The translations under genes and the position numbers were made by a program. Below, piece by piece: positions 1 to 30,974 of a DNA stretch of 53,262 bases. This stretch comes from a virus (Duplodnaviria; Caudoviricetes): the IMG/VR virus record IMGVR_UViG_3300048582_000146, positions 1-53,262 of that record; one strand, given 5' to 3'. A model generated the notes under the pieces. The model was not told the origin of the DNA and did not search any database. It saw only the letters and a list, made by a program, of their open reading frames with translations. Each line of letters starts with the position of its first letter. The stretch's first letter is position 1.

Positions 1-127
1 AACGATTACAACGTAATGAAATTGGCACAGGGATCAGTTTCAAACGGCACACTAAAAATAGCCGGAAGCGTGAATGGCTTAACAGCAGCTTCTGCTTCAT
101 ATTATGCAACTTTAATTTCAAGAGGTT
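1..127 (+). repeat. 127-bp terminal direct repeat, left copy (circular assembly overlap)
   Basis: Identical to 53136-53262; falls inside a gene that reads through in frame. Confidence 0.97.
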
Positions 128-153
128 GGACAATAGATGTCCCATCTCCCTAA
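1..153 (+). CDS. 3' end of the origin-spanning esterase-domain virion protein that starts at 51849
   Basis: Frame 1 reads NDYNVMKLAQG...RGWTIDVPSP* (TAA 151-153), in frame with ATG 51849. Confidence 0.85.
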   Translation, partial: NDYNVMKLAQGSVSNGTLKIAGSVNGLTAASASYYATLISRGWTIDVPSP

Positions 154-164
154 AAAATAGAACT

Positions 165-464
165 ATGAAAACACTAAAAAAAATCATCCTTTGGATTTAT
201 GCAACAAACGCGGACAGACACGTATTTTTAATAGGAACACCAGTAGCATTATTGTTTTTGAAGCTTTTGTTTCTAAGTGATTCATTCAGATACAACACCC
301 ACTTTTTATTTCATGCTTTTGTGGCCGCTATTCCTGCAGTACTTGCCGGTTATGCTTGGGAAAAGTTTCAGAAGAAACAATTCAATGCCACCATGAATGA
401 ACTAGACATTTGGATTTGTGGTTTAGGAGGACCAATAGCAGTAATTATTTTAAATTTTCTATAA
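165..464 (+). CDS. Small multi-TM membrane protein (lysis-region accessory)
   Basis: About 3 hydrophobic segments; ATG 165 follows an A-rich leader and is preferred to TTG 126. Confidence 0.7.
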   Translation: MKTLKKIILWIYATNADRHVFLIGTPVALLFLKLLFLSDSFRYNTHFLFHAFVAAIPAVLAGYAWEKFQKKQFNATMNELDIWICGLGGPIAVIILNFL

Positions 465-467
465 ACT

Positions 468-974
468 ATGCAAAAATTCTTTTCCCTCAATTTAATCGAG
501 TTTTACGAAGCTTTTAAATTTTCGGCAATAGTTGGCTTGATACCATCCTTTTTCTTTCCATATATAGATGTGTGGGTGAATGGTAATATTGATTACATAC
601 GTATCGCATTGGGTATTGTAATTGTCGATCATGCTTTAGGTTCGTTGGTACATTCAAGAATTTATAAGAATGATTGGGATTGGAAAAAGAATATTACCGG
701 CTTTGGAATTAAAATCAGTATGGTTGTGGCTTTTGGTTTTATCATGGAAGGATTGGCACACATAACCATTGCTGACGATTTTATTTATAAATACATAAAA
801 ATGACAGGTCGCATTTTGGTTTGTTTATATCCGGGAATGTCGGCTTTGCGAAATATTAAAATTATAACCTACGGTAGGTTTCCACCCGATGCCTTGATAG
901 GTAAATTGGAAAACTTTAACCGAGATTTAGATTTAGAAAAACTTAAAAAAGGAAACGATGCCGAAAGCAATTAA
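468..974 (+). CDS. Putative holin
   Basis: 3-4 TM segments, charged C-terminus, overlaps the endolysin start. Confidence 0.7.
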   Translation: MQKFFSLNLIEFYEAFKFSAIVGLIPSFFFPYIDVWVNGNIDYIRIALGIVIVDHALGSLVHSRIYKNDWDWKKNITGFGIKISMVVAFGFIMEGLAHITIADDFIYKYIKMTGRILVCLYPGMSALRNIKIITYGRFPPDALIGKLENFNRDLDLEKLKKGNDAESN

Positions 975-1542
975 CGTAAAAAACTTATGCCTGCATGTTT
1001 CTGCAGGTTATTCAAAAGTACCGGGAATAGAATTGTTTTGGAAAAACACTTTGAAATGGTCTGGCAAAGGCTATGCTGTAATTATTGATGTAGATGGCAC
1101 AAAATATTTTTTAGACAACCCGTCACAAACACACGGATACACAACTACATACAATAATGGCAAATGCTTTGGTTTTGTTACCAACGGAGTAAAAGGCTTC
1201 AATGAATCAATCATAAGCATTTGCACCATTGGTGGAATTAAGAATCTAGGCACTAAAGAAAAGCCCATTTATAAAGGCGTTGACACTCGAACCGATGCAC
1301 AAAAAAAAGCATTAGATGAAGTAATTCAATTGGCTATCACCTGGTTAAAAGCGAACGGAAAAGACATCACTAAAGATTTAGGTATTGTTGGCCACCGTGA
1401 CTATTCTAAAGACGGAAACAACAACGGAGCCATCGAATCATGGGAACGTATTAAAGAATGTCCGTGTATTGATGCGATTGAAGAATACGGCTACTTCTAT
1501 GGAAGTGCAGACCGATATGGGAAATTACCAACTCAAAAATAG
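958..1542 (+). CDS. Endolysin, N-acetylmuramoyl-L-alanine amidase (Amidase_2/T7 lysozyme-like)
   Basis: Zn-ligand motifs LHVSAG, GY, SICTIGG, VGHRD, KECP. Confidence 0.88.
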   Translation: MPKAINVKNLCLHVSAGYSKVPGIELFWKNTLKWSGKGYAVIIDVDGTKYFLDNPSQTHGYTTTYNNGKCFGFVTNGVKGFNESIISICTIGGIKNLGTKEKPIYKGVDTRTDAQKKALDEVIQLAITWLKANGKDITKDLGIVGHRDYSKDGNNNGAIESWERIKECPCIDAIEEYGYFYGSADRYGKLPTQK

Positions 1543-1622
1543 AATTGTTTCCCTTATTAATGAGGTAAACATAATGTAAAGAATTGATTGTAAAATAATT
1601 ATAACACTTAAAAAACAGCAAT

Positions 1623-2051
1623 ATGCCAAATGTAATGTACAACTCGGCTAAAAGAGATTTTCTAAAAGCCGCTATCAACTGCGAAACCGACACCATAAAA
1701 GTAATGTTGGTTGGTGCGGGTTATGTTCAAAATATCGACACGCACACAAAGCGTTCAGATATTACCAATGAAATAGTTGGAGCAGGCTACACTGCAGGCG
1801 GTGTAGTTTTAGCAAACAAATCAGTTACGATTGATTTAGCAACAAACAAAGCAATTTTCAATTGTGATGATCCGGTAATTCCAAACGCAACAATTGCAGG
1901 TGCTATTGGTGCTGTAGTTTACAAATCAAGAGGCGGAGCAGCTAGTGCTGACGAATTGATTTGCTACAATGAATTTGCAGCTCCTGCATCAAGCACAAAT
2001 GGAAATTTTGTTGTTAACATAGCCACTATTGGGGTATTACAATTAGGATAG
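1623..2051 (+). CDS. Putative virion structural protein
   Basis: DTIKVML...GAGYTAGG motif typical of small phage tail/fibre-associated proteins. Confidence 0.6.
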   Translation: MPNVMYNSAKRDFLKAAINCETDTIKVMLVGAGYVQNIDTHTKRSDITNEIVGAGYTAGGVVLANKSVTIDLATNKAIFNCDDPVIPNATIAGAIGAVVYKSRGGAASADELICYNEFAAPASSTNGNFVVNIATIGVLQLG

Positions 2052-2053
2052 TT

Positions 2054-4192
2054 ATGAAAATAGCAGTAGAACAAGTATTCAATGGTTCTTTAGACCAAGT
2101 GGCAGTGGGCGGAGCCTATGATGCTACTAAAATAAATAGGGGAAAACATAGTGGACAATATAATTTAGGTTCAGGAGCTATTGATAAATTCATTGGTCCT
2201 TGTCCTTTAGGAGTTGCCAATTTTGGTGAAAGCTCGTTGGCTATTCCTTCTCAATTTGTGCATCCTATTAAAATTACTGATGATTTGTTTTGGATTTTTG
2301 GTTCAGATGCTGCTGTAGCCGCAGCCACAAGAAGGGTTCAATTATGGACTTTTGTTCCTTCAACAAATACTTATAATTTTCAAGGTGCAATAAACTGTAC
2401 TTTTCCAACAGCAACAAACCATACTGTTAGAGGATTAAGAGCAATTTTGCATAATGAAACTACAGGTACGGTTGCTGTAAGTGGTACAGCCGTAACAGGA
2501 ACTGGAACTGCTTTCACAACAGGATTATCAGTTGGCTCTCGAATTGGTTTTGGCTCAACAGATCCAAACGCAATTGTAACTTGGTATCAAATACAAGCTA
2601 TTGGTTCTGCAACTGGAATAACGTTAACAACTTCTGCAGGAACTATTTCAGCCGGAACTCCTTACGTAATTCAAGATTTAATGGTTGTACAGGCTACAAC
2701 AAACGCTACAGTAACCAATGGAGGTTTATTTGTTACCAAAGGATTAAGATTTGAGGACTTTAATTCACCTGCGACAAACATTCCTACTGCTACAACTGTC
2801 GATAAAATTAAAGCAACCTATTGGTTAAAAGATGCTGCAACAATCACCAATGATGTTATTGGAGGGTGTGCATTAGGAGAATTAACTTCATTAACTGAGC
2901 AATTCGTTTATTGTACAGAAGGTGCTGCTACTTCATTAATTATTTATAAATACAATATCAGAGCAGCTCTTACTCCAACATCCGGAGCTTTTGTATTAAC
3001 TGGAGCTAATCTTGTAATTACCGGTGCACAAACAGTAACGGGAAATATTTCCCAATTAAATAACGGTAGAGAGGCAACTCTTAATCATGGTTCAGGTGCG
3101 GGAGTTGCTAGTATTTATGCTTTAACAACAACTAGAGTTTTAAGAATACCATTGGCAAATGTTACAGCAGGTAACACAACATTCGTCGCTGATTCAATGT
3201 CTGAAGTTCCTCCGGGAGGTGTAGTCACAAATATTTCAACAGGAGGATTTGTATCAATGGATGTTTCTCAATCTCTTGATAAATTAATATTAGTATCTGC
3301 TGTTTCTACAGGGACTATTTATATTACAGATTATTATACAGGAGGACAACAGATAGACAGAAGAAGCGGTTGTTTAACTCCTCAAGCACCTTCTTCATCA
3401 AGAGATACAGACAGTCCAATTTTCATTCATAGCGTTACAAGTAGCGTTCCTTTTATTTGGGCAGAGGATGGTTGGTTGTTCTACTTATATACTCAAGCGA
3501 TAACGCAAACTATAAACGCTATGACTGCGTATCCTTTAGCTGCCGATTTAGAATTTGAGTCCGACACTACCAATAGAATTATTTGCCCTAAAATAACGCT
3601 TGGAGCCGCTCCTTCAAAACTATACAGAGCATTGGTTAATTCATTAACAAATGTTGGTGACAACACGATGGGAGTTTCTCCAGACATGTATCTTTTAGAA
3701 GTACGCACATCAGGAATTGATGATAATTCCGGTTCTTGGACAGCAGTTCCGCAAAACGGAGACTTATCTGGGTTAGGCGTGCCAACAGACATTCAGTTTG
3801 CTTTCAGATTCAGAACTGCAGGTGTCATCATGTTGCCAAACAGAATTTTGTCATTAGCATTGCTATATGAAAGCGATGATGCTCTTCCTTCTCAGTACCG
3901 ATGGAACTATGCCGATTTCAATACAACTAACGGAACATTTGCATGGGTGCAAGCTGTTTTGTTTGGCGGAGCTTTAACCACGCACACAATTGAAATTTAC
4001 AGAGCCGATACCAATGCTTTAGTATTAACACAAGCAAGTTCAGGAACAACCAACGGAGCTTTTGAAAATTGGAATGGTAGTGCTTGGGTAGCAGGTCTTG
4101 GAGCGGACACAGTAGGCAGAAGGAGAAGATTTGTTCCTACCGGTTCACTTCCGGGAAGTATTGATTTATACGCAAAAATAATAGTAGCTTAA
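2054..4192 (+). CDS. Putative tail fibre / receptor-binding protein
   Basis: 712 aa, T/G/A/S-rich beta composition; TGTVAVSGTAVTGTGTAF fibre motif. Confidence 0.6.
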   Translation: MKIAVEQVFNGSLDQVAVGGAYDATKINRGKHSGQYNLGSGAIDKFIGPCPLGVANFGESSLAIPSQFVHPIKITDDLFWIFGSDAAVAAATRRVQLWTFVPSTNTYNFQGAINCTFPTATNHTVRGLRAILHNETTGTVAVSGTAVTGTGTAFTTGLSVGSRIGFGSTDPNAIVTWYQIQAIGSATGITLTTSAGTISAGTPYVIQDLMVVQATTNATVTNGGLFVTKGLRFEDFNSPATNIPTATTVDKIKATYWLKDAATITNDVIGGCALGELTSLTEQFVYCTEGAATSLIIYKYNIRAALTPTSGAFVLTGANLVITGAQTVTGNISQLNNGREATLNHGSGAGVASIYALTTTRVLRIPLANVTAGNTTFVADSMSEVPPGGVVTNISTGGFVSMDVSQSLDKLILVSAVSTGTIYITDYYTGGQQIDRRSGCLTPQAPSSSRDTDSPIFIHSVTSSVPFIWAEDGWLFYLYTQAITQTINAMTAYPLAADLEFESDTTNRIICPKITLGAAPSKLYRALVNSLTNVGDNTMGVSPDMYLLEVRTSGIDDNSGSWTAVPQNGDLSGLGVPTDIQFAFRFRTAGVIMLPNRILSLALLYESDDALPSQYRWNYADFNTTNGTFAWVQAVLFGGALTTHTIEIYRADTNALVLTQASSGTTNGAFENWNGSAWVAGLGADTVGRRRRFVPTGSLPGSIDLYAKIIVA

Positions 4193-4194
4193 AA

Positions 4195-5112
4195 ATGGCA
4201 AACAATTTAAACTTTGGCGGAGCAGTAGCTGTCCTTGTGAGAGACAAGGGAGTGGCAAACTCCGTCAATGGTTTTGTTGCCAAAGAACCAACGCAAGGTT
4301 CCAATAGTACTACCTTACCTACAACGGTAAAGTTTTTATTATATGACTTTGTTTCATCTGCTCAATCACCGGCAAATGTAGATGCAAACGTATCGCTAGA
4401 ACTTGCCGAAGCAACCATGGAGGCATTGCAAGCAACTGCTTCCGGTTCTGCCAATGTTTCTGCAACACTAGCCGAAGCTAGCTTTGAAGGTTTGCAAGCT
4501 AGCGTTACTGCAATTGCCAATGTTTCACTTGAAATAGCGAATGTAGATTTTGAAGCATTACAAGCAAACGCAATAGGAAACGCAAACGTAACACTTGACA
4601 TTGCCGAAGCTACATTTGAAGCTTTCCAAATGAATACAACAGTTGAGGCAGGTGTTGAAGTGTTTTTGGAGCTTGCCAACGCACCAATGGAAGCCTTGAA
4701 AATGACCGTATCCGGTGATGCAGTAACGCAAATTAATATTGCTGAGGGATCAATTCAAGCTTTGAATATTACTGCTTCCGGTGGTGTAAATGCTTTTTTA
4801 GAATTAGCAGATATGACTATTGAGGCTTTTCAAGCTACTGCTAAAGGTGATGCAAACATGCAATTAGACATAGCAGAAAGTTATTTTACATTAGGAAACA
4901 TAATCATTTTCAATGCATCGAGATTAAAAGCAGTTTACATCAACTCACTTGTTAAACAGGAAATTGCTTTAATTTCAAAAATCGATTCATCTGCAGTTTT
5001 AAATTCATCTGTTAAAGTAGAAAAAATTATTTATTCATTGGTTTCAAGAAAAAAAGAAATAGAATCAACAGTCTTAAAAGAATTACAATTAAAATCAGAG
5101 ATATATGGATGA
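4195..5112 (+). CDS. Repeat-containing putative structural protein
   Basis: About 7-8 tandem ~23-aa units (A.V.LE.AEA..EALQA.A.G). Confidence 0.6.
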   Translation: MANNLNFGGAVAVLVRDKGVANSVNGFVAKEPTQGSNSTTLPTTVKFLLYDFVSSAQSPANVDANVSLELAEATMEALQATASGSANVSATLAEASFEGLQASVTAIANVSLEIANVDFEALQANAIGNANVTLDIAEATFEAFQMNTTVEAGVEVFLELANAPMEALKMTVSGDAVTQINIAEGSIQALNITASGGVNAFLELADMTIEAFQATAKGDANMQLDIAESYFTLGNIIIFNASRLKAVYINSLVKQEIALISKIDSSAVLNSSVKVEKIIYSLVSRKKEIESTVLKELQLKSEIYG

Positions 5113-5398
5113 TAAAATTTATTTAGGGCAAGATTTCCCAATCACTCTAAAAATTAATGAAAACCTTGCTGGAGCCACCGACTTAAAATTAAATCGAGAA
5201 GATCCACAAGGAGAGGCAGCCTCACAATTAAACCTAACGATTATTAATGAAGAAGAAGGAGAAACTTTTTTCATGTCAACGGATAACGAATTTAATATGA
5301 TAGGTCCGTGGAACGTGTGGCCAACTTATACTAACGGCGATGGATTGTCAAGAATAGGCAAACCTTCACAGATTTATATTCACAAACCAGGAACTTAA
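5105..5398 (+). CDS. Small Ig-like/BppU-N-like structural protein
   Basis: Beta-strand pattern with ...FNMIGPWNVWP... typical of BppU N-terminal-like domains. Confidence 0.45.
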   Translation: MDDKIYLGQDFPITLKINENLAGATDLKLNREDPQGEAASQLNLTIINEEEGETFFMSTDNEFNMIGPWNVWPTYTNGDGLSRIGKPSQIYIHKPGT

Positions 5399-5408
5399 AA
5401 AATAAATT

Positions 5409-6092
5409 ATGAAAAAAATAAATTTCCCATTGATTTACGATTACATAAAAAGCTATGTATATCCAATTTTGATTTTGTTATTGTTAATTGGTTGCGGAAC
5501 AAAAACTAAAACAAAAACAGAATCATCCAATGAAATTGCATTAAAAGAGCAGGCTCGAAAATCTGATTCTATAAAAACCATTGATTTAATAATCAATAAA
5601 AAAGTAGAGGAAAAGGTAAAGGAATACATTGATCAATCAAAATCAAGTTCTGAATCTGTTTCAGAAGATAAAGATGTGACCACTATAACAGAAATTAGTA
5701 CTGATGCTCCGGCAACGATAACACTAACAGATGGACGTGTTTTAAATCTTCAAAATGGCAAAATTACTGAAACCAAAAGCACCGCAACGAAGAAAAATAA
5801 TACCAAAGCTATTACTGAAAAGAATATCGAAATTTCTGAACGATCGCAATCAATAATTGATGAAGTAAACATCAAAGCGATGTCACGTGAAATAGTAGAA
5901 GAAGTTCTCACCGACTTATCAAAAAAGGAAACTTCAAAAACAGGTGAACAAGTTAAAAAAGGATGGCAGCCCGGATTTTGGTTTTGGTTCTGGATAATTC
6001 TGATTTTACTTATAGCAATTGCATTGTGGCTTTTCAGGAAATATTTAGGCATTCAGTTTCCTTTTTTGCAAATGTTTAAATTCTTCAGATAA
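5409..6092 (+). CDS. Putative unimolecular spanin (lipoprotein with C-terminal TM helix)
   Basis: Lipobox LLIGC, hydrophilic middle region, C-terminal TM (WFWFWIILILLIAIALWLF). Confidence 0.7.
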   Translation: MKKINFPLIYDYIKSYVYPILILLLLIGCGTKTKTKTESSNEIALKEQARKSDSIKTIDLIINKKVEEKVKEYIDQSKSSSESVSEDKDVTTITEISTDAPATITLTDGRVLNLQNGKITETKSTATKKNNTKAITEKNIEISERSQSIIDEVNIKAMSREIVEEVLTDLSKKETSKTGEQVKKGWQPGFWFWFWIILILLIAIALWLFRKYLGIQFPFLQMFKFFR

Positions 6093-6120: not shown

Positions 6121-7269
6121 TTACAATGCCGGTGAGTTTTCCATAATGTTATTACGGTGAACTTCTTTAACTACCTTAGCATACTCAGCAGTCATTAATT
6201 TTGATGAGTGGCCATAAAGCTCACGCAAACTATCTAAATCAAGTCCGGCCAGTATTTTTCTATCAGCTCCCAAATGTTTAAGGGCATACATATTCATATC
6301 AATTCCCAGATCAGTTTTTACAATTTTTGCCCATCGTTTAGTGGCCGTGTCTCTTTTTAATTTTGTTGGAGCCGGAATAAAATCAGAATGCTTGCCTAAA
6401 TTACCACGTCCGGATGTTCTGAAGCTTCCAAACAAATAGAAGTTATCAGGAAATGTATTTAATTCCATTTTTGAATAATACTCCAGCAAATGTTTATTAA
6501 TAGGAACAATGCGTTTCTTTTTGGTTTTGGTAATGCCTGCCGGCAGAATTATCTCTGATTTATTAAGGTTTACCATCTTCAATGTAATTTTTAAAATCTC
6601 TTCAGGCCTGATGCCGGTGTGAAAAATAGTCAAGCAGAACACCCAAAAATTATAATGATTCTTTTCAAGTTGCTCCTTTATTTTTTCTACATCTTCAAAC
6701 GATGCCGGAATGTTCGCCTCGCTTGATGCGACATGCAAATTATTGATTTTATATGCCGGGTTAGCCTCAATAATATCCCATTGGATTAACTCGCTTAAAA
6801 TAGCCTTTAAATGATTCAAATGTTTATTGAATGCATTATTGGTCCATTTACGTTGTTCTTTTGCTTTTTCGATGATCAACTTTACATGAACTCTTTTAGT
6901 GTCTGAAATCTTCAAATGTTCTAATCCTAATTCTTTGACCGACTGTTTAATGAATCGAACGGTTCCGTTATAGCCTGAAAGCGTTTTTGGTGCGATATTT
7001 GGACGTTTCATTTCCATAGCGAAGTCCAATGCTTCTGTAAAAGAAAAAACCTTTTGAGCGTTAGCTATATCCGGAACTTGCGGGTTCCAACCTTCTTTAA
7101 GTTTAATGTATAGGGATTCTCTAAGGAGTTCGAATTCTTTTTCTTTCTCCTTTAAATCTGCGATGAGGTTTAGTCCGAGCTTAAAACGGTACTGTTGACC
7201 ATCATAGCGAAAATGAACATACCAATACTTTCCTTTGGTAATTTTTGGAATTGAATAATTTGCTTTCAT
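6121..7269 (-). CDS. int: Tyrosine integrase
   Basis: HTGIRPEE, KT, YALKH, LYGHSS, catalytic Y in AEYA; adjacent to attP. Confidence 0.95.
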   Translation of the reverse strand: MKANYSIPKITKGKYWYVHFRYDGQQYRFKLGLNLIADLKEKEKEFELLRESLYIKLKEGWNPQVPDIANAQKVFSFTEALDFAMEMKRPNIAPKTLSGYNGTVRFIKQSVKELGLEHLKISDTKRVHVKLIIEKAKEQRKWTNNAFNKHLNHLKAILSELIQWDIIEANPAYKINNLHVASSEANIPASFEDVEKIKEQLEKNHYNFWVFCLTIFHTGIRPEEILKITLKMVNLNKSEIILPAGITKTKKKRIVPINKHLLEYYSKMELNTFPDNFYLFGSFRTSGRGNLGKHSDFIPAPTKLKRDTATKRWAKIVKTDLGIDMNMYALKHLGADRKILAGLDLDSLRELYGHSSKLMTAEYAKVVKEVHRNNIMENSPAL

Positions 7270-8207: not shown

Positions 8208-8831
8208 TTACATCGTTGTTTTTGTTATTACTCCTTTTATAATAAAGAACCTCTTTAGTAGTGATAAGTGAAATTCTTTTGCTTCATACTTTGGATTTTC
8301 AGAAGCCAAAAGCCAATGATCGTCGTCTTTTCCTTTTCTTATGTATTTTAAAAAGACTTGGCCATCATTCAAAATAATCACATAAGCATATCCAAAATTT
8401 ATATAGCAGGGCTCAACTTCTTTTATTCCTATTATTTCACCACTGCAATACTTCGGATACATGCTGTCTCCGTAAACATTAATAAATTCGACACCTTTCT
8501 CCCAGTTAGGAATACTTATAGCGATTCTTCTTAGTTCATCATTTTGAAGCTCCATTTCTAAACCGGCACTTGCCGAAACATCCGGATAGTAATAACCGGT
8601 AGGATCTTCATTCACAAAATCAACAGTACTTTCTTTTAATACATAACTTTTTGTTTTGTAATTTGTAATGTAATTTTCAAGTATCTCTAAAGTTTTTTCT
8701 CTTGGGTTTTTAGAGGTTCCATTGATTATTTTGTTTATTCCAACCTCAGTTAATTCAGTGTCTTTTGCTATCTCATAGGCCGTTAATCCTAGAGATTTAA
8801 TGTCTTTTACTATTTTTATCGCTCTCATCAT
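8208..8831 (-). CDS. cI: CI-like repressor, HTH plus S24 peptidase
   Basis: N-terminal HTH, SAG cleavage site, GDSM serine, LK lysine, L.SENP.Y; start probably 8831 or 8828. Confidence 0.92.
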   Translation of the reverse strand: MMRAIKIVKDIKSLGLTAYEIAKDTELTEVGINKIINGTSKNPREKTLEILENYITNYKTKSYVLKESTVDFVNEDPTGYYYPDVSASAGLEMELQNDELRRIAISIPNWEKGVEFINVYGDSMYPKYCSGEIIGIKEVEPCYINFGYAYVIILNDGQVFLKYIRKGKDDDHWLLASENPKYEAKEFHLSLLKRFFIIKGVITKTTM

Positions 8832-8843
8832 TTCCCATATATA

Positions 8844-8862
8844 ATTTAAAATCATTTTAAAT
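8844..8862. promoter_or_regulatory. Fur-box-like palindrome (2 mismatches) in the cI leader
   Basis: ATTTAAAATCATTTTAAAT. Confidence 0.4.
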
Positions 8863-8916
8863 TACATAATTATTATGTATTATGTTTTGTAGATACATAA
8901 CAGTTATGTATATTTG
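8863..8916 (+). promoter_or_regulatory. Early lytic promoter with two CI operators
   Basis: TTTG(8886)-N19-TATATTTG(8909); palindromes TACATAATTATTATGTA (8863-8879) and ATACATAACAGTTATGTAT (8893-8911). Confidence 0.85.
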
Positions 8917-8937
8917 TCCTGTACAAAAAGCAAGAAG

Positions 8938-8945
8938 CAAAAGTA
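8938..8945 (-). promoter_or_regulatory. Putative -7 element of the leftward cI promoter
   Basis: Reverse complement TACTTTTG matches TAnnTTTG. Confidence 0.55.
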
Positions 8946-8980
8946 TACTAAAAATTTATTGAAATTACGCGATTCTGTCA

Positions 8981-8999
8981 ATTTAGAATCATTATAAAT
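8981..8999. promoter_or_regulatory. Fur-box-like palindrome (1 mismatch)
   Basis: ATTTAGAATCATTATAAAT. Confidence 0.6.
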
Positions 9000-9010
9000 A
9001 AAATTTTAGA

Positions 9011-9209
9011 GTTGTAAGTTATTTGAAATCATGAGATTAACTGATGAGTATAGTCTGAATAACGGGCAGGGCAATGCGATAGATCACTACGTGTAGTGAT
9101 TCAATAGGTGGAACTCCTTTTGCGTAACTTAAAATGTGGAACGATACGGTATACGTAAGGTTGGTCTATAGCCACAATGGGCTGAATAATACATGTTGAT
9201 AATTACAAT
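9011..9209 (+). ncRNA. Putative ~200-nt multibranched structured RNA in the early leader
   Basis: Nested helices GTTGTAA/TTACAAT, CATG/CATG, AGATTAACT/GGTTGGTCT, GTATA/TATAC; hairpins GTCTG/CGGGC, ATCACTA/TAGTGAT, AGG/CCT, TAGCC/GGCTG; many G-U pairs. Confidence 0.65.
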
Positions 9210-9220
9210 ACCAAATATTA

Positions 9221-9313
9221 AGGCTATGGGTTTAACAACCTTTCTGCGAAAGCCTGAAAGATAAAATTAAAAACGCCATTGGATTAAGTTCTATGCTTCG
9301 ATGAAACAATGGC
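9221..9313 (+). ncRNA. Two further small structured RNA modules
   Basis: AGGCT/AGCCT three-way junction (9221-9255); GCCATTG/CAATGGC stem with GATT...GAAA internal loop (9275-9313). Confidence 0.45.
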
Positions 9314-9344
9314 ACTATTGTAAAACCTTTTAACCTAACTAAAA

Positions 9345-9581
9345 ATGATAGCAATTGATAAAAACATACCAATCCCTTCACGAGTAAGAAATAGGGTTTA
9401 TCCGCTTAACAAGATGGAAGTAGGTGATAGCTTCTTTAAAGAGATTGACGAAAACAAAAGTAAGCACTACGAAAAACAAAAAATTTATATGGCGGTTTGG
9501 AGGCACTGCCAAAACCATAGTAATAAAAAATTTACAACCGCATCTGAGGAAAATGGAGTAAGAGTTTGGAGAATTCAATAA
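9345..9581 (+). CDS. Small conserved phage protein, putative DNA-binding
   Basis: IDKNIPIP...YPLNKMEVGDSF...GVRVWR. Confidence 0.75.
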   Translation: MIAIDKNIPIPSRVRNRVYPLNKMEVGDSFFKEIDENKSKHYEKQKIYMAVWRHCQNHSNKKFTTASEENGVRVWRIQ

Positions 9582-9780: not shown

Positions 9781-10002
9781 ATGGCACTACAAATAAGAGA
9801 TGATATTTATCATTTAATCAGAAACGATGTAAAGCTTAGAATTAAAATGGCAGCTCATTTAGAAGTGAGTGATGCTACCATCTATTTACACGCTAAAAGA
9901 AAGGCTCCAAAGTTAAACGACTACAATTTGGTTAAAATACTAATGGATCATACCGGGAAATCAGAGGAAGAAATATTTGAAACTCAAAACTCAACCACAT
10001 GA
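9781..10002 (+). CDS. Cro-like HTH regulator
   Basis: KMAAHLEVSDATIY HTH; early operon divergent from cI. Confidence 0.7.
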   Translation: MALQIRDDIYHLIRNDVKLRIKMAAHLEVSDATIYLHAKRKAPKLNDYNLVKILMDHTGKSEEEIFETQNSTT

Positions 10003-10416: not shown

Positions 10417-10439
10417 AAAACCGGCTCTACACCGGTTTT
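10417..10439 (+). terminator. Intrinsic terminator within the early operon
   Basis: AAAACCGG-N7-CCGGTTTT. Confidence 0.65.
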
Positions 10440-10484
10440 CATTTTTAAATTCTAACAGCCGAGCAAGGCATAAAACTTAAAGTG

Positions 10485-30860: not shown

Positions 30861-30974
30861 GGGGAAGTAGCTCAGAGGTTAGAGCAATTCAATAAACCTA
30901 GGCCTTCGATCGGGGTGCTTCGTATAGAAGGGGTTTATTTTCATAAGTCGTTGGTTCGAATCCAACCTTCTCCA
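30861..30974 (+). ncRNA. tRNA-like RNA with the anticodon arm replaced by a 58-nt structured insert
   Basis: Acceptor GGGGAAG/CTTCTCC, D arm GCTC-AGAGGTTA-GAGC, variable loop AAGTC, T arm GTTGG-TTCGAAT-CCAAC; no canonical anticodon stem-loop. Confidence 0.85.

Follow-up and report, generated by a model that had tools for sequence, protein, structure and literature searches.

A conserved structured RNA leader with a boxA-like box at the head of the early transcript of a temperate phage, probably of Flavobacteriia

Temperate phages of Flavobacteriia appear to borrow a box from the rRNA operons of their hosts and to join it to an uncatalogued RNA fold and a tRNA-like stem. We describe this arrangement in a virus record of 53,262 nt, called the window throughout, by which we mean the whole stretch of DNA analysed. 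Positions 9031–9170 are the core of a conserved, non-coding, structured leader that heads the lytic (early) transcript of a temperate phage, probably of Flavobacteriia. We put at roughly 0.4 the probability that the element is an antitermination leader that depends on boxA and Nus factors and contains a new RNA module. To our knowledge, nearly all detailed work on processive phage antitermination concerns the lambdoid phages of enterobacteria. Neither a leader of this kind nor antitermination in temperate phages of Flavobacterium turned up in our literature search, with subscription journals outside its coverage, and we tentatively regard a phage antitermination leader that uses the host rRNA box and has a new RNA family inside as new. 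If the mechanism is true, it would offer the first way into how Bacteroidota phages control their early genes, it would show naturally how the rRNA antitermination complex acts on foreign RNA, and structural work would gain a new RNA family.

The phage, its immunity region and its early operon

The window, 53 kb long, has terminal repeats and is the complete record of a temperate phage with an integrase and a CI-like repressor; two small regulators are also among the genes of the integrase/repressor region (Table 1). The repressor matches Pfam Peptidase_S24 (5e-12) and HTH_3 as well as the PHROG transcriptional repressor (4e-18). Searching genomes, we found a repressor 64% identical to it encoded by one prophage in a Flavobacterium genome bin, and further relatives in Flavobacterium and other Bacteroidota genomes. 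Because the repressor and other relatives lie in such genomes, the phage host is probably a member of Flavobacteriia. A search of viral contigs with the CI-like protein returned no relatives, and nothing in the phage GenBank collection matched by blastn. Downstream of the leader, recombination, replication, packaging, head, tail and lysis genes follow in a long array on the plus strand. Every lytic gene, from early to lysis, is encoded on this same strand downstream of the single leader (window 9345–51847 and 1–6092), and the opposite strand carries the integrase and immunity genes only. A tRNA gene on the plus strand (30861–30974) matches the Rfam tRNA model from end to end at 49 bits; its anticodon region is 54 nt long against 13 nt in the model, so that about 41 nt are inserted. 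The acceptor stem has a G3-U70 pair and is followed by A, C, A; ARAGORN does not report the gene.

Table 1. Coordinates of features in and around the leader of the window
Feature	Position	Strand	Basis or remark
Integrase gene	6121–7269	minus	
CI-like repressor gene (HTH and S24 peptidase), divergent from leader	8208–8855	minus	
Two operator-like palindromes, overlapping promoter	8863–8879, 8893–8911		read from sequence
Putative early promoter: TTTG (8886–8889), 19-nt spacer, TATATTTG (8909–8916)	8886–8916	plus	
Inverted repeat GATTCT-N8-AGAATC with conserved box CAATTTAGAATCA inside	8971–8990	plus	
boxA-like box AAGTTATTTGAAATCATG, abuts P1	9016–9033	plus	
Structured RNA domain (model R1)	9031–9170	plus	covariance model, pair counts
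P1: AGATTAACT with GGTTGGTCT	9034–9042 with 9159–9167	plus	
Internal loop GATGA/GTAA	9043–9047 and 9155–9158	plus	
P2: GTATA with TATAC	9048–9052 with 9150–9154	plus	
P3a	9066–9068/9135–9137		GCA/TGT in window
P3b	9069–9071/9128–9130		GGG/CTT in window
P3c	9075–9078/9123–9126		TGCG/CGTA in window
P4 hairpin	9083–9100	plus	
P5 hairpin AGG-TGGAACT-CCT	9106–9118	plus	
P6 hairpin AGCC-ACAATG-GGCT	9170–9183	plus	
Putative three-helix module AGGCT...AGCCT	9221–9255	plus	
3′ stem, 7 bp (9275–9281/9307–9313), then AC (9314–9315)	9275–9315	plus	model R2
First early ORF, 78 aa, weak DUF7303 match	9345–9581	plus	
Small conserved Cro/C1-type HTH-like protein	9781–10002	plus	Atlas leads only
Intrinsic-terminator-like hairpin and T run, within early operon	10417–10446	plus	

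The leader occupies 8856–9344 and separates the repressor gene from the first early ORF. A preliminary description of this DNA had drawn attention to an ORF-free, GC-enriched stretch before the first gene, and both properties hold: the leader contains no plus-strand ORF longer than 27 aa, and its G+C is 0.37–0.41 at 9000–9199 vs 0.21–0.31 immediately upstream. Along the plus strand come the promoter, the boxA-like box, the 140-nt RNA domain, variable modules, the 3′ stem with AC, and the start codon; the whole conserved leader element spans 9016–9315. The palindromes that overlap the putative promoter presumably act as operators. We compared the promoter with the Bacteroidota −33/−7 consensus, and the transcript start predicted from it is near 8922. 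Its box TATATTTG is also present upstream in five related loci (L021, L010, L013, L018 and L019). The inverted repeat that encloses CAATTTAGAATCA lies upstream of the boxA-like box in the window, in L006 and in the L021 group, and downstream in L019.

The first early ORF has a homologue behind the leader in L032 only. The HTH-like protein is encoded in 14 of 20 related loci, mostly as the first gene, 14–30 nt after the leader. We recognised no N-like protein among the early ORFs, in agreement with the preliminary description, and in the related loci no protein encoded within 2.6 kb downstream co-varies with the presence of the domain. Internal terminators had also been proposed for the operon. 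The window has one terminator-like hairpin, at 10417–10446, but the claim does not generalise: of 20 related loci, a strict finder reported strong terminator-like sites behind the leader in just 4, vs 0 of 20 shuffled ones.

A covarying RNA domain

A covariance model of the domain (R1), built from eight sequences with the proposed structure, found 17 phage or prophage copies at E ≤ 4e-15 and two weak ones among 44 sources searched. Four of the loci (L021, L153, L164 and L165) are more than 90% alike, and the 17 copies comprise roughly ten independent lineages. The closest relative, L006, is about 79% identical over the matched leader (blastn), and distant copies were gathered via the neighbouring SbcC-like gene and with DNA patterns from conserved blocks. 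A first, looser DNA pattern (at least 120 matches) was discarded, as all 80 loci fetched with it failed the profile and were chance matches; L004 and L005, reached through the first ORF, have unrelated leaders. The domain was seen in one genetic context only. One prophage copy, L176, resides in a Flavobacterium genome, and a search of 151 genomes of the genus found the domain in 1, the genome already known. Among sequencing runs, none of RNA was listed as containing the sequence; two runs labelled RNA-Seq were set aside as transcription evidence, being contigs marked ‘probably DNA’ and uninformative on transcription.

The preliminary description had proposed a multibranched RNA of about 200 nt (9011–9209) closed by an outer helix. 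A structured RNA is indeed present, with narrower limits: the conserved core is 9031–9170, and the outer helix (arms at about 9011–9023 and 9198–9209), which is part of the window's minimum free energy (MFE) structure, has both arms missing in L006 and shows no counterpart in other homologues. Within the core, standard pairs fill 92.4% of 463 cells vs 33.6–54.4% when partners are slid by 1–3 columns; because the alignment was fitted to the model, these counts lean towards structure, and the slid controls and double changes are the fairer guide. Double changes occur in 22 of 27 pairs, and 0 of 500 shuffles match the observed value on any of five measures. The two inner helices of the description, 9034/9159 and GTATA/TATAC around the GATGA/GTAA loop (P1 and P2), show double, compensatory changes in homologues at all 14 pairs. 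In metagenome contigs of relatives, 9048 G>A occurs together with 9154 C>T, a compensatory change that keeps the P2 pair. The GATGA/GTAA loop itself is retained in about half of the copies only and is missing in the L021, L159 and L163 types; a hammerhead or K-turn reading of it was rejected, as it is a two-strand internal loop with no Rfam match. In 16 of 17 homologues P4 forms a hairpin of 6–9 bp whose stem sequence differs between copies; it is cleanly absent in L006. The hairpin AGG-TGGAACT-CCT is present as described, and in the form AGG-TGGAANN-CCT it is invariant in 19/19 aligned rows; since P5 never varies, covariation neither supports nor contradicts it. Its UGGAA loop and the unpaired junction stretches GAATAACG and CGATAC stay invariant amid covarying helices. 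A scan for further covarying column pairs, which was noisy, yielded one extra candidate at alignment columns 36/119 (window 9065 and near 9140), with G-C, A-U and U-A in about five rows each; this pair may extend P3a and, with an invariant CG...CG, make a further short helix.

G-U pairs predominate at three positions (12–15 of 18 rows). The RNA is therefore the plus strand, which the preliminary description had also read from its G-U pairs. The expected stability in excess of shuffled sequence did not appear: thermodynamic folding gave z-scores of −0.93 for 9011–9209, −0.69 for 9031–9170 and −0.64 for 9016–9320. The structure supported by covariation is not the MFE structure (−25.4 kcal/mol when enforced vs −31.6 kcal/mol unconstrained).

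Rfam 15 at gathering score matched nothing in the whole window except the tRNA at 30861. At E ≤ 10, the region 8800–9450 matched no known family, riboswitches and T-box included, and four homologue loci gave nothing relevant. The absence of an Rfam 15 match together with strong covariation supports the designation of the domain as a new RNA family, in line with the new class of non-coding RNA considered earlier.

A boxA-like box shared with host rRNA operons

All copies have AAGTTCTTTGA(C/A)AT... directly 5′ of P1. In 14 of 16 R1 copies this box differs by 0–5 mismatches from the 18-mer of the Flavobacterium rrn spacer and ends −3 to +4 nt from the domain start; by comparison, ≤5 mismatches were obtained for 24 of 2000 random windows. 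The poorest match is that of the window itself (5/18 mismatches overall, 3/11 in the core). In its relatives the box has 0–3 mismatches to the spacer 18-mer and is identical to it in some. The 18-mer of phage L021, AAGTTCATTGACATATTG, recurs letter for letter in the 16S–23S spacer of the genome that carries L176, after two tRNAs, and the same genome has a 3-mismatch version of it upstream of 16S. We found the 18-mer with ≤1 mismatch in 21 of 41 Flavobacterium genomes, some with 4–6 copies, against 1 for a reversed-pattern control; two of the genomes have a one-mismatch copy some 2 kb upstream of an exact one, as expected for leader and spacer copies. In each of the six loci checked, the 18-mer follows the spacer tRNAs and precedes the 5′ end of 23S, which is the position of boxA. 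The core of the relatives' box, GTTCTTTGACA, departs at 1 of 11 positions from GYTCTTTAANA, the gamma-proteobacterial boxA consensus (PMC5725501). The boxA:NusB:S10:NusG interface is described as conserved in Bacteroidota (PMC13753749). boxA is also able to serve repression, as at suhB (PMC5725501).

The phage holds only one such box. The marine homologues L160 and L167 show 9–10 mismatches, unlike the Flavobacterium box. The exact box variant of the window was not found in 301 genomes of the family; sites with one mismatch to it occur in 45 of these vs about 22 control hits, and ten such sites that we inspected had no R1 or R2 nearby. A proposed pairing of the box with a conserved ...CCTGTCA... 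stretch after P6 was rejected: by eye, it works in L021 and L032 and fails in the window, L006 and L154, and the stretch is absent in L023 and L176.

Two other sites came to light in host genomes. The sequence AAGTTCTTTGAAAACATG occurs in about 15 of the 301 genomes of the family (e.g. L226, L227 and L229), nearly always as a single copy, at sites not adjoining the phage RNA models, and may be a box preceding a host gene. In L198, the rrn leader of G001, a hairpin GTTTTAAGA-GAG-ATCTTAAAAC comes right after the box, in a region about 60–100 nt upstream; it shares ten letters with the phage domain, where ATCTTAAAAC is conserved (E 0.5), probably by chance.

A tRNA-like 3′ stem and exchangeable modules

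The model of the 3′ stem, R2, has 20 hits. Paired cells make up 82.3%, where slid controls give 27.8–50.5%, and double changes occur at each of the 11 pairs. This includes every one of the seven acceptor-like stem pairs, whose cells are 88% paired; the corresponding figure for the T-stem is 72%. The stem is complete (7/7 pairs) in 18 of 19 loci, and AC follows it in 18 of 19 loci and in L013, making 19 of 20 copies. A looser rule-based stem finder matched 28 of 600 random windows. By eye, 12 of 20 copies have a T-stem of 4–5 bp and a 7-nt NUCGAUA-type loop abutting the 3′ strand. The other eight, the window's included, are without a T-stem, and the window has no convincing T-arm; in six of the eight (L023, L157, L176, L018, L019 and L013) the T-stem is replaced by a covarying 3-bp hairpin with a GCAUCGAAGC-like stretch, and in the window and L006 this small hairpin is indistinct (by eye). 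In three true tRNA genes inspected (n = 3), A and then C follow the acceptor stem, as after the 3′ stem. ARAGORN reported 0 genes in the window and the 20 loci, and the Rfam tRNA and tmRNA models did not match at the 3′ stem. The start codon lies 14–30 nt after the stem in 11 loci; in the window the distance from the stem and AC is 29 nt.

Between the domain and the 3′ stem, the leader varies. Hairpins with differing stems occupy the place of P6 in L021, L032, L154, L159 and L166 (by eye). The sequence at 9221–9255 is common to the window, L006, L168, L018 and L019; it shows little covariation and its structure is putative. In the leaders of L010, L013, L018 and L019, promoter, box and 3′ stem are all retained, R1 scores no match, and other structured modules fill the interior (L010:2880–3030, L013:2280–2516, L018:2530–2826 and L019:2324–2532). 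A hairpin CGAG-TGGAATC-CTCG in L010 and a related stretch UGGAAUCC in L013, both of UGGAAUC type, recall P5. Judged from these comparisons the leader looks modular. That the same box and 3′ stem are found with differing inner modules suggests exchangeable specificity parts, as boxB and N are in lambdoid phages. Since related leaders keep the box and the 3′ stem without R1, the domain seems dispensable for the role of the box.

How the leader may act

From this layout we infer that the leader may bind Nus factors, that it may bring about antitermination, perhaps with the domain taking part, and that it may be processed. The match of the box to the host rrn spacer box argues for a Nus-factor mechanism of the nut or rrn type rather than that of put. 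Host NusB–S10, with NusG and NusA, would read the box on the nascent RNA as at rRNA operons, and RNA polymerase would become resistant to termination and to Rho. The resistant polymerase could then cross the untranslated leader of 420 nt, read past the terminator and continue along the lengthy run of lytic genes on the one strand. The adjoining domain would be the phage-specific RNA part of the site, positioned like boxB or put, and would stabilise or gate the complex; the 3′ stem would be a processing or stabilising point ahead of the first gene. Because terminators by the strict finder occur in so few of the related loci, the more general need may be protection from Rho over the long untranslated leader and the one-strand lytic array.

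The same parts can also be read as a device for making RNA. It is somewhat unlikely, in our estimation, that the leader encodes a stand-alone non-coding RNA made like a small rRNA operon and acting in trans, perhaps by decoying tRNA-directed factors or by soaking up a protein. The box would then only shield synthesis from Rho and aid the long-range P1, and enzymes of the RNase III, P or Z type would cut at the P1/P2 stem and the tRNA-like stem. The order of box, long closing helix, structured RNA and tRNA-like stem does mirror an rrn operon, and the T-stem with its NUCGAUA-type loop in 12 of 20 copies, the near-universal AC that the three real tRNA genes inspected share, and the start codon 14–30 nt past the stem in 11 loci all speak for an RNA released at this point. 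Assisted folding is plausible as well, since the consensus fold is not the MFE. However, the window's 3′ stem is without a T-arm, ARAGORN and the Rfam tRNA model are blank at the stem, and likeness to host 16S, 23S and spacer amounts to 9–12-nt chance matches (E ≥ 0.03). A version that keeps antitermination, and which we consider unlikely, would make the leader a miniature mimic of an rRNA operon, in which an exact copy of the spacer boxA recruits the antitermination and folding complex and the RNA is released to act in trans. The complex would keep hold of the 5′ P1 strand for the 125 nt that must be transcribed before the partner strand appears, and would so fold a 140-nt RNA that is prone to misfold unaided. 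Through the tRNA-like stem, host tRNA-processing enzymes would free the RNA as a stable species, and the freed RNA would target, for instance, a tRNA-directed defence or the supply of ribosomes or Nus factors while the polymerase continues through the lytic array.

Conserved unpaired junction nucleotides and an invariant 7-nt loop amid covarying helices, in a 5′ leader, would also suit a riboswitch-like or tRNA-sensing cis element that gates the lytic operon, its junction and UGGAA loop binding a ligand, a tRNA 3′ end or a host protein. Yet no terminator, anti-terminator or start-codon-masking alternative adjoins the domain, which has a single genetic context, matches no Rfam riboswitch or T-box at E ≤ 10 and is replaceable in related leaders, and we hold such a role to be quite unlikely. 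Very unlikely, to our mind, is an antiterminator RNA of the put type, which would contact RNA polymerase itself and need no factors; an analogy with put was one option in the preliminary description. An element at the head of the early transcript, no recognised N-like gene and a terminator in the window's operon would suit it. The antitermination setting proposed there is supported by the box that abuts the domain, which that description had not noted; the put mechanism is disfavoured by the rrn-type box in 14 of 16 copies, put being described as needing no boxA, and by an architecture that differs and that nothing in Rfam matches. As for DNA, the immunity region and the adjoining operator-like palindromes would fit an operator cluster, an origin, or a packaging or attachment site, and conserved sequence may also lack any function. 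Helices kept via double changes, G-U pairs that would be C-A on the other strand, and a minus-strand fold with z = +0.29 disfavour this reading, which strikes us as extremely improbable.

Comparison with known systems

The leader resembles the antitermination leader of rRNA operons, where boxA works with NusB, S10, NusG and NusA: the relatives' box equals the host 16S–23S spacer box letter for letter, and it stands just 5′ of a long-range helix enclosing a structured RNA, as boxA stands before the rRNA processing stems. Arnvig et al. are said to have compared ribosomal antitermination. Unlike an rRNA operon, the phage element lies in an immunity region under a CI-like repressor, it encloses an RNA of 140 nt that is unlike rRNA, and the window's box carries 5/18 mismatches. 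With the nut site of lambda (boxA, boxB and N) it shares a boxA-like box, a structured RNA within a few bases of it and a place at the head of an early phage operon, as well as an inner module that varies among related phages while the box stays. It differs in having a 140-nt multi-helix domain instead of a 15-nt boxB hairpin, with no short boxB-type hairpin adjoining the box, and in that no N-like protein was found and none co-varies with the module.

The put site of HK022 consists of two stem-loops of about 70 nt that are described as working without boxA or Nus factors. Like put, the element is a structured RNA at the start of an early transcript, proposed to defeat terminators in cis; unlike put, it has a box, and its single closing helix leads through an internal loop to P2 and then to a junction carrying P3–P5. 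On architecture, we consider that it is not a put homologue. The 3′ stem recalls tRNA-like minihelices (the tRNA-like domain of tmRNA, viral tRNA-like ends and mascRNA-type signals) in having a 7-bp acceptor-like stem followed by AC and, in the 12 copies read as carrying one, a stacked T-arm whose 7-nt loop is of UCGA type. In contrast to these, both of its acceptor strands are local, it has no D or anticodon arms, 8 of 20 copies, the window's among them, are without the T-stem, and tRNA finders are blank. boxA also occurs outside rRNA operons, before suhB and CRISPR (PMC13753749). As in CRISPR arrays and the suhB leader, where such a box controls Rho on poorly translated transcripts, the box studied here lies outside rRNA operons; unlike those chromosomal examples, it is borne by a phage and joined to a dedicated RNA fold.
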